A stretch of DNA of 64,000 nucleotides from Escherichia coli (GTDB lineage Bacteria; Pseudomonadota; Gammaproteobacteria; Enterobacterales; Enterobacteriaceae). Both the position numbers and the translations under genes were made by a program. The notes below the pieces were generated by a model. That model saw nothing but the letters and a program-made list of their open reading frames with translations, was not told where the DNA came from and did not search any database. The stretch lies in the NCBI RefSeq assembly GCF_016903815.1, contig NZ_CP069973.1; one strand, 5' to 3'. This document shows, in pieces, positions 55,431 through 57,077 of the stretch (position 1 is the first letter of the stretch; every line of letters starts with the position of its first letter).

Positions 55431-57077
55431 ATGAATGGCGCACAGTGGGTGGTACATGCGTTGCGGGCACAGGGTGTGAACACCGTTTTCGGTTATCCGG
55501 GTGGCGCAATTATGCCGGTTTACGATGCATTGTATGACGGTGGCGTGGAACACTTGCTGTGCCGACACGAGCAAGGTGCAGCAATGGCGGCTATCGGTTA
55601 TGCCCGTGCTACCGGCAAAACTGGCGTATGTATCGCCACGTCTGGTCCAGGTGCAACCAACCTGATAACCGGGCTTGCGGACGCGCTGTTAGATTCCATC
55701 CCCGTTGTTGCTATCACCGGTCAGGTATCCGCACCGTTTATCGGCACTGACGCATTTCAGGAAGTGGATGTACTGGGATTGTCATTAGCCTGTACCAAGC
55801 ACAGCTTTCTGGTGCAGTCGCTGGAAGAGTTGCCGCGCATCATGGCTGAAGCATTCGACGTTGCCAGCTCAGGTCGTCCTGGTCCGGTTTTGGTCGATAT
55901 TCCAAAAGATATCCAGTTAGCCAGCGGCGATCTGGAACCGTGGTTCACCACTGTTGAAAACGAAGTGACTTTCCCACATGCCGAAGTCGAGCAAGCGCGT
56001 CAGATGCTGGCAAAAGCGCAAAAACCGATGCTGTACGTTGGCGGTGGCGTGGGCATGGCGCAGGCAGTTTCGGCTTTGCGTGAATTTCTCGCTGCCACAA
56101 AAATGCCTGCCACCTGTACGTTGAAAGGGCTGGGCGCAGTAGAAGCAGATTATCCGTACTATCTGGGCATGCTGGGGATGCACGGCACCAAAGCGGCGAA
56201 CTTCGCAGTGCAGGAGTGCGATCTACTGATCGCCGTGGGCGCACGTTTTGATGACCGGGTGACCGGCAAACTGAACACCTTCGCACCACACGCCAGCGTT
56301 ATCCATATGGATATCGATCCGGCAGAAATGAACAAGCTGCGTCAGGCACATGTGGCATTACAGGGTGATTTAAATGCTCTGTTACCAGCATTACTGCAGC
56401 CGTTAAATATCGATGACTGGCAGCAACACTGCGCGCAACTGCGTGATGAACATGCCTGGCGTTACGACCATCCTGGTGACGCTATCTACGCGCCGTTGTT
56501 GTTAAAACAACTGTCGGATCGTAAACCTGCGGATTGCATCGTGACCACAGATGTGGGGCAGCACCAGATGTGGGCTGCCCAGCACATCGTCCACACTCGC
56601 CCGGAAAACTTCATCACCTCCAGCGGATTAGGCACCATGGGTTTTGGTTTACCGGCGGCGGTTGGCGCACAAGTCGCGCGACCGAACGATACCGTCGTCT
56701 GTATCTCCGGTGACGGCTCTTTCATGATGAATGTGCAAGAGCTGGGCACCGTAAAACGCAAGCAGTTACCGTTGAAAATCGTCTTACTCGATAACCAACG
56801 GTTAGGGATGGTTCGACAATGGCAGCAACTGTTTTTCCAGGAACGATACAGCGAAACAACCCTTACTGATAACCCCGATTTCCTCATGTTAGCCAGCGCC
56901 TTCGGCATCCCTGGCCAACACATCACCCGTAAAGACCAGGTTGAAGCGGCACTCGACACCATGCTGAACAGTGATGGGCCATACCTGCTTCATGTCTCAA
57001 TCGACGAACTTGAGAACGTCTGGCCGCTGGTGCCGCCAGGTGCCAGTAATTCAGAAATGTTGGAGAAATTATCATGA
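55431..57077 (+). CDS. ilvG: acetolactate synthase II large subunit, apparently intact (548 aa)
   Basis: uninterrupted 548-aa ThDP-enzyme ORF; from memory K-12 carries a frameshift here. Confidence 0.93.

Follow-up and report, generated by a model that had tools for sequence, protein, structure and literature searches.

The presence of an open ilvG in an Escherichia coli chromosome raises the question of whether the frame is intact at the point where the K-12 allele is broken, and what this says about the source strain and its acetolactate (acetohydroxyacid) synthase II (AHAS II). The K-12 ilvG frameshift, reportedly described by Lawther et al. in 1981 (cited in PMC8605374), has been textbook knowledge since then. 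We examined the gene and its surroundings in a 64,000-nucleotide stretch of E. coli DNA (the window, to which all coordinates refer unless another sequence is named).

ilvG was found as a single frame running from an ATG start to a TGA stop. An earlier note, made from the letters of the window, had described it as an uninterrupted 548-codon ORF, and the ORF listing matched this exactly in coordinates and length. Since the chance of 548 open codons is (61/64)^548, or about 4e-12, it is not plausible that a frame of this length arose by chance. The gene and the Pfam domains of its product are as follows.

55431..57077, plus strand: ilvG, intact, 548 sense codons and TGA, ATG start; catalytic subunit of AHAS II
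IlvG residues 1-115: TPP_enzyme_N (PF02776), complete
IlvG residues 186-321: TPP_enzyme_M (PF00205), complete
IlvG residues 374-522: TPP_enzyme_C (PF02775), complete

IlvG matched NF006524, the NCBIfam equivalog named 'acetolactate synthase 2 catalytic subunit', with 1073 bits (cutoff 738), aligned over residues 1-547 of 548. The other acetolactate synthase large-subunit equivalogs listed, which included models named for AHAS III and none named for AHAS I, scored IlvG below their own cutoffs. Eight residues that are functionally important in AHAS II were checked (E47, the catalytic glutamate, F109, Q110, M250, R276, D428, N455 and W464) and all eight were present. The ThDP-Mg motif, GDG-X25-N, was found at residues 427-455. 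The predicted product of ilvG is a full-length AHAS II catalytic subunit.

The genes around ilvG were assigned from the ORFs and from the RefSeq annotation of E. coli strain 7/2 (NZ_CP023820.1; human faeces, Sweden), which was carried onto the window by an offset of +35430 and reads ilvL, ilvX, ilvG (intact), ilvM, ilvE, ilvD, ilvA, ilvY, ilvC. The operon contains the following features.

55193..55291, plus strand: ilvL, 32-aa leader peptide (MTALLRVISLVVISVVVIIIPPCGAALGRGKA); NCBIfam NF007744 'ilv operon leader peptide', 81.9 bits (cutoff 59); nucleotide-identical to K-12
55312..55347, plus strand: attenuator, an intrinsic terminator in which CCCCCG (55316-55321) pairs with CGGGGG (55334-55339), followed by T8 (55340-55347); identical to K-12
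55378..55428, plus strand: ilvX, 16-aa small ORF, nucleotide-identical to K-12 b4669 and annotated as 'peptide IlvX' in strain 7/2
57074..57337, plus strand: ilvM, 87-aa small subunit of AHAS II; NF008362, 133.9 bits (cutoff 68), and Pfam ACT_5
57357..58286, plus strand: ilvE (ORF and strain 7/2 annotation)
58351..60201, plus strand: ilvD (ORF and strain 7/2 annotation)
60204..61748, plus strand: ilvA (ORF and strain 7/2 annotation)

ilvM directly adjoins ilvG, its ATG overlapping the ilvG stop codon (ATGA), and both genes lie in ilvLXGMEDA behind the leader and attenuator, as would be looked for in an AHAS II operon. The IlvM protein is identical to that of K-12, and the gene differs at two synonymous nucleotides. 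Folding of the RNA of 55291..55350 gave the attenuator hairpin with -23.3 kcal/mol. The attenuator was not reported by a simple terminator scan of the plus strand, presumably because the scan seeks an uninterrupted stem and this stem has an internal mismatch. Rfam RF02744 matched at 55122..55411 with 158.8 bits, covering the ilv leader and attenuator, and was the sole Rfam match in 54000..64000. The family is named 'Rev39_5p_UTR' (soft-rot Enterobacteriaceae); judging by where it matches, this is apparently another name for the ilvL leader. From the leader through the attenuator and ilvX to the ilvG ribosome-binding region (to 55430), a single SNP at 55365 separates the window from K-12. Ahead of ilvL, the AT-rich 85-nt segment 55057..55141 differs from K-12 by 9 SNPs, and the next 290 nt differ by one.

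The earlier note had given the K-12 allele as frameshifted and had proposed an alignment with MG1655 to check it. This alignment was run, and the note proved right: MG1655 ilvG (b4488; NC_000913.3 3950560..3952204) is an annotated pseudogene of 1645 nt between ilvX and ilvM, and the frameshift was found in K-12 only, the window frame being open throughout. Globally aligned, the two sequences differ by 54 substitutions (96.7% identity) and by exactly one 2-nt gap. The bases missing in K-12 are the AT at 56407-56408 of the window (gene nt 977-978, codon 326), which belong to the following repeat.

56407..56410, plus strand: (AT)2 tandem dinucleotide spanning codons N326-I327; a single AT in K-12, the frameshift site

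At this site the window reads CCG TTA AAT ATC GAT GAC TGG (P-L-N-I-D-D-W) whereas K-12 reads CCG TTA AAT CAA TGA (P-L-N-Q-stop). With one AT lost, the K-12 frame enters a TGA at codon 328, leaving a truncated product of 327 aa. Since the window keeps the AT and reads N-I-D-D-W, its ilvG falls outside the K-12 frameshift allele class. The position obtained from the alignment agrees with the premature TGA reported at nt 982-984 of K-12 ilvG (PMC8605374). Five intact alleles, the window's among them, all have TTAAATATC at the site, where K-12 has TTAAATC. Measured against each of the intact alleles examined, K-12 has thus lost 2 nt in one deletion, in contrast to the E. coli W genome paper (PMC3032704), where the lesion is worded as 'two separate base pair insertions'. 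We conclude that the K-12 state is the derived one, with one unit of (AT)2 lost, and we infer slippage as the cause of the deletion.

To place the two states in the species, complete E. coli genomes were searched. ilvG was found in 5,425 of 5,426. At least 30 complete genomes carry an ilvG that RefSeq annotates as intact and that is 100% identical to the window allele; only 105 of the 5,425 were at least 99% identical to it, which makes it a minority-lineage allele. The K-12 state was sought by matching, at 99% or more, a 101-nt probe with the K-12 junction at its centre; it was found in 340 of the 5,426 genomes. For 65 of these 340 that were listed, chromosomes were K-12-sized (4.46-4.79 Mb), and most of the 65 bear familiar K-12 names (MG1655, C600, J53, DH5alpha, DH1, HMS174, RR1, JM83). 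Fifty-five genomes sampled outside this class span 103 nt for the 101-nt query (in one case 98 for 96), so the extra 2 nt are present in them. Another 506 genomes gave no probe match; they most likely carry divergent alleles without a common 28-mer, and the window allele itself differs from the probe at several positions. Strains W, B and Crooks have also been described as having an intact ilvG (PMC3032704). Intact ilvG is therefore the species norm, with the 2-nt loss apparently confined to the K-12 lineage among the genomes sampled. As the norm, it says of the strain only that it is 'not K-12', and nothing more specific.

We compared the window allele with four further alleles, those of AR_0011, B strain C3029, NU14 and strain 13081, each 1647 nt long, annotated as intact and carrying the same bases at the site. 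They are 95.9-98.1% identical to the window ilvG, NU14 being the closest (98.1%). Relative to a frame-restored K-12 ilvG the window shows 46 synonymous and 8 nonsynonymous differences (dN/dS 0.05); dN/dS was 0.057 relative to NU14 and 0.037 relative to strain 13081. Values of 0.04-0.06 against three lineages indicate continued purifying selection. The amino-acid differences from K-12 to the window are C146S, P214S, Q322L, N328D, S342A, V370I, A387V and H494P, and seven of the eight also occur in at least one other intact allele. The exception is L322 (CTG, 56394..56396), which none of the other five alleles compared has: K-12, AR_0011, C3029, NU14 and 13081 all have Q (CAG). Codon 322 precedes the K-12 frameshift site by four codons, and the residue is just beyond the end of the central domain, where the alignment with IlvB is poor. 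Split at the frameshift, the differences between K-12 and the window number 34 synonymous and 3 nonsynonymous upstream, and 12 and 5 downstream. Relaxed constraint 3' of the K-12 frameshift was considered as a cause of this distribution and rejected: AR_0011 equals K-12, so no such difference post-dates the frameshift in K-12.

The remainder of the window was compared with strain 7/2 and with K-12. Strain 7/2 differs from the whole 64-kb window by 3 mismatches (99.99% identity), 2 of them in the 28,570 nt of 35431..64000 and 1 in 1..39002, and it shares the flanking genes, the IS200C and the island. The DNA flanking ilvG is 97-98.6% identical to K-12, except for the yidZ-yieH segment. This segment (1..3663; yidZ-yieE-yieF-adeP-yieH), which adjoins the island, reaches only 93.6% identity to K-12 and has 19 gap openings, against about 98.5% identity in the remainder of the window; it looks like a recombined or hypervariable flank. 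The earlier note had counted an IS200 insertion and an island as non-K-12 features. Both are real and both are absent from K-12, with the following content.

37384..38089: IS200C, 706 nt, with tnpA at 37528..37986 on the plus strand; in the kup-rbsD intergenic region, kup and rbsD being adjacent in K-12
3664..11122: espY4 island, 7.46 kb, between yieH and phoU
3815..6223, minus strand: espY4, type III secretion system effector, in the island
6529..7716, plus strand: pentapeptide-repeat protein, in the island
8186..10570, minus strand: hypothetical protein of 794 aa, in the island

A short frameshifted ORF is also present in the island. At the same position K-12 has a 9.4-kb cbrBC-yieKL-bglHBFG block, so the lineage of the window appears to be without the bgl operon at this site. 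Three further observations were made. oriC lies at 29906..30137, between mnmG and mioC, and is identical to K-12 at 231 of 232 positions. In the pstB-pstA intergenic region (about 12716..12723) the window is missing about 85 nt of K-12, and the extra K-12 sequence may be a REP-type element. The yifB ORF (53320..54870, minus strand) encodes 516 aa when read from the upstream ATG; in strain 7/2 and K-12 alike, RefSeq has 506 aa (1521 nt), which points to the downstream start as probably the true one.

Could the source nevertheless be descended from K-12 and have regained the ilvG frame, as a spontaneous valine-resistant revertant or by engineering? Because such revertants exist, an open frame by itself would still be compatible with K-12. 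They arise readily through one-base deletions in the premature TGA: loss of its T or its G restores the frame and allows growth at 1 mg/ml valine (PMC8605374). A -1 revertant of this kind would have 547 codons in a K-12 backbone, whereas the window gene has 548 codons with (AT)2 and differs from K-12 ilvG by 54 substitutions. The backbone is not that of K-12 either, with IS200C and the 7.5-kb island both lacking a K-12 counterpart, flanks at 97-98.6% identity and the yidZ-yieH segment at only 93.6%; the isolate 7/2, on the other hand, matches with 3 mismatches in 64 kb. Restoration of a K-12 gene is thus refuted, with next to no probability left to it. The conclusion of the earlier note that the source is not K-12 holds, given the retained AT, the 54 substitutions and the match to strain 7/2; the substitutions and the near-identical strain 7/2 make it more secure than the open frame alone would. 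The frame might also be an assembly or sequencing artefact that masks a real indel, since indel errors are known in some long-read assemblies. Against this, the identical 1647 nt recur in at least 30 independently assembled genomes, and five alleles from different lineages have equal length and the same bases at the site, which makes an artefact exceedingly improbable.

An ORF may be open and its enzyme still inactive or not made, through a missense change such as Q322L or through changes in the promoter region, in which case the strain would be valine-sensitive like K-12. L322, unique to the window allele among the six, and the 9 SNPs in the 85 nt upstream of ilvL would be the candidates. This is unlikely, though less remote than an artefact, in view of the low dN/dS, the presence of all catalytic and cofactor-binding residues checked, the full-length HMM match far above cutoff, the identical allele in at least 30 independent complete genomes, and a leader, attenuator, ilvX and ribosome-binding region that equal K-12 except for the SNP at 55365. 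Also improbable is a reading in which Q322L and the cluster of 9 upstream SNPs together alter the kinetics or expression of AHAS II in this lineage relative to other E. coli and, separately, slippage recurs at (AT)2 and silences ilvG in some natural isolates as well. We are highly confident that the window ilvG is the ordinary wild-type allele and that it comes from a natural E. coli isolate outside K-12, all but identical to strain 7/2.

For such an allele a conventional mode of action is expected. Transcription from the ilv promoter would pass through the ilvL leader, where the availability of charged Ile, Leu and Val tRNAs sets the degree of attenuation; read-through would yield IlvG and IlvM, the latter translationally coupled to the former through the ATGA overlap, and the two would assemble into AHAS II. 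The catalytic subunit of AHAS II depends on ThDP, FAD and Mg. The enzyme would condense pyruvate with pyruvate or with 2-ketobutyrate, the first common step of valine, leucine and isoleucine synthesis. AHAS I is inhibited by valine via IlvN, whereas AHAS II with IlvM is not. Acetohydroxybutyrate for isoleucine would therefore still be made when valine is present, and valine resistance is predicted for the strain. The earlier note had expected the strain to make acetolactate synthase II, and expression of a valine-insensitive AHAS II is a prediction well supported by the full-length IlvG and by an ilvL, attenuator, ilvX and IlvM as in K-12; enzyme activity and valine resistance are predictions from the same sequence features. 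In K-12, the frameshift both removes the AHAS II isozyme and imposes polarity on ilvEDA, a polarity for which PMC8605374 cites a 1997 study by Parekh and Hatfield. The strain studied here should be without this polarity.

An intact ilvG is already known, and it is already annotated in RefSeq for the matching genome. Its value here is one of bookkeeping, in that it marks a non-K-12 source and predicts valine resistance and an unpolarised ilvGMEDA. Two small points may be of further use, namely that the K-12 lesion is the deletion of one (AT)2 unit and that the AR_0011 allele is the K-12 allele plus AT.

Among known systems, the window ilvG agrees at all 1647 nt (100% identity) with its counterpart in strain 7/2 (4284929..4286575; WP_001012630.1, 'acetolactate synthase 2 catalytic subunit'). 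The closest PDB relative by sequence is the large subunit of E. coli AHAS I, IlvB (6LPI; E = 1.2e-162, residues 2-544), and no AHAS II structure ranked above it among the PDB matches listed. IlvB shares its fold family and reaction with IlvG but is a paralogue belonging to a different isozyme. K-12 has the gene at the same locus and in the same operon order, ilvL-ilvX-ilvG-ilvM-ilvE-ilvD-ilvA. Its ilvG equals that of the natural isolate AR_0011 (NZ_CP024855.1) at all 1645 common bases, the AT being the sole difference, so the K-12 pseudogene has undergone no further decay. Judged from this identity, the K-12 pseudogene would have arisen recently from a natural allele, in a single event.
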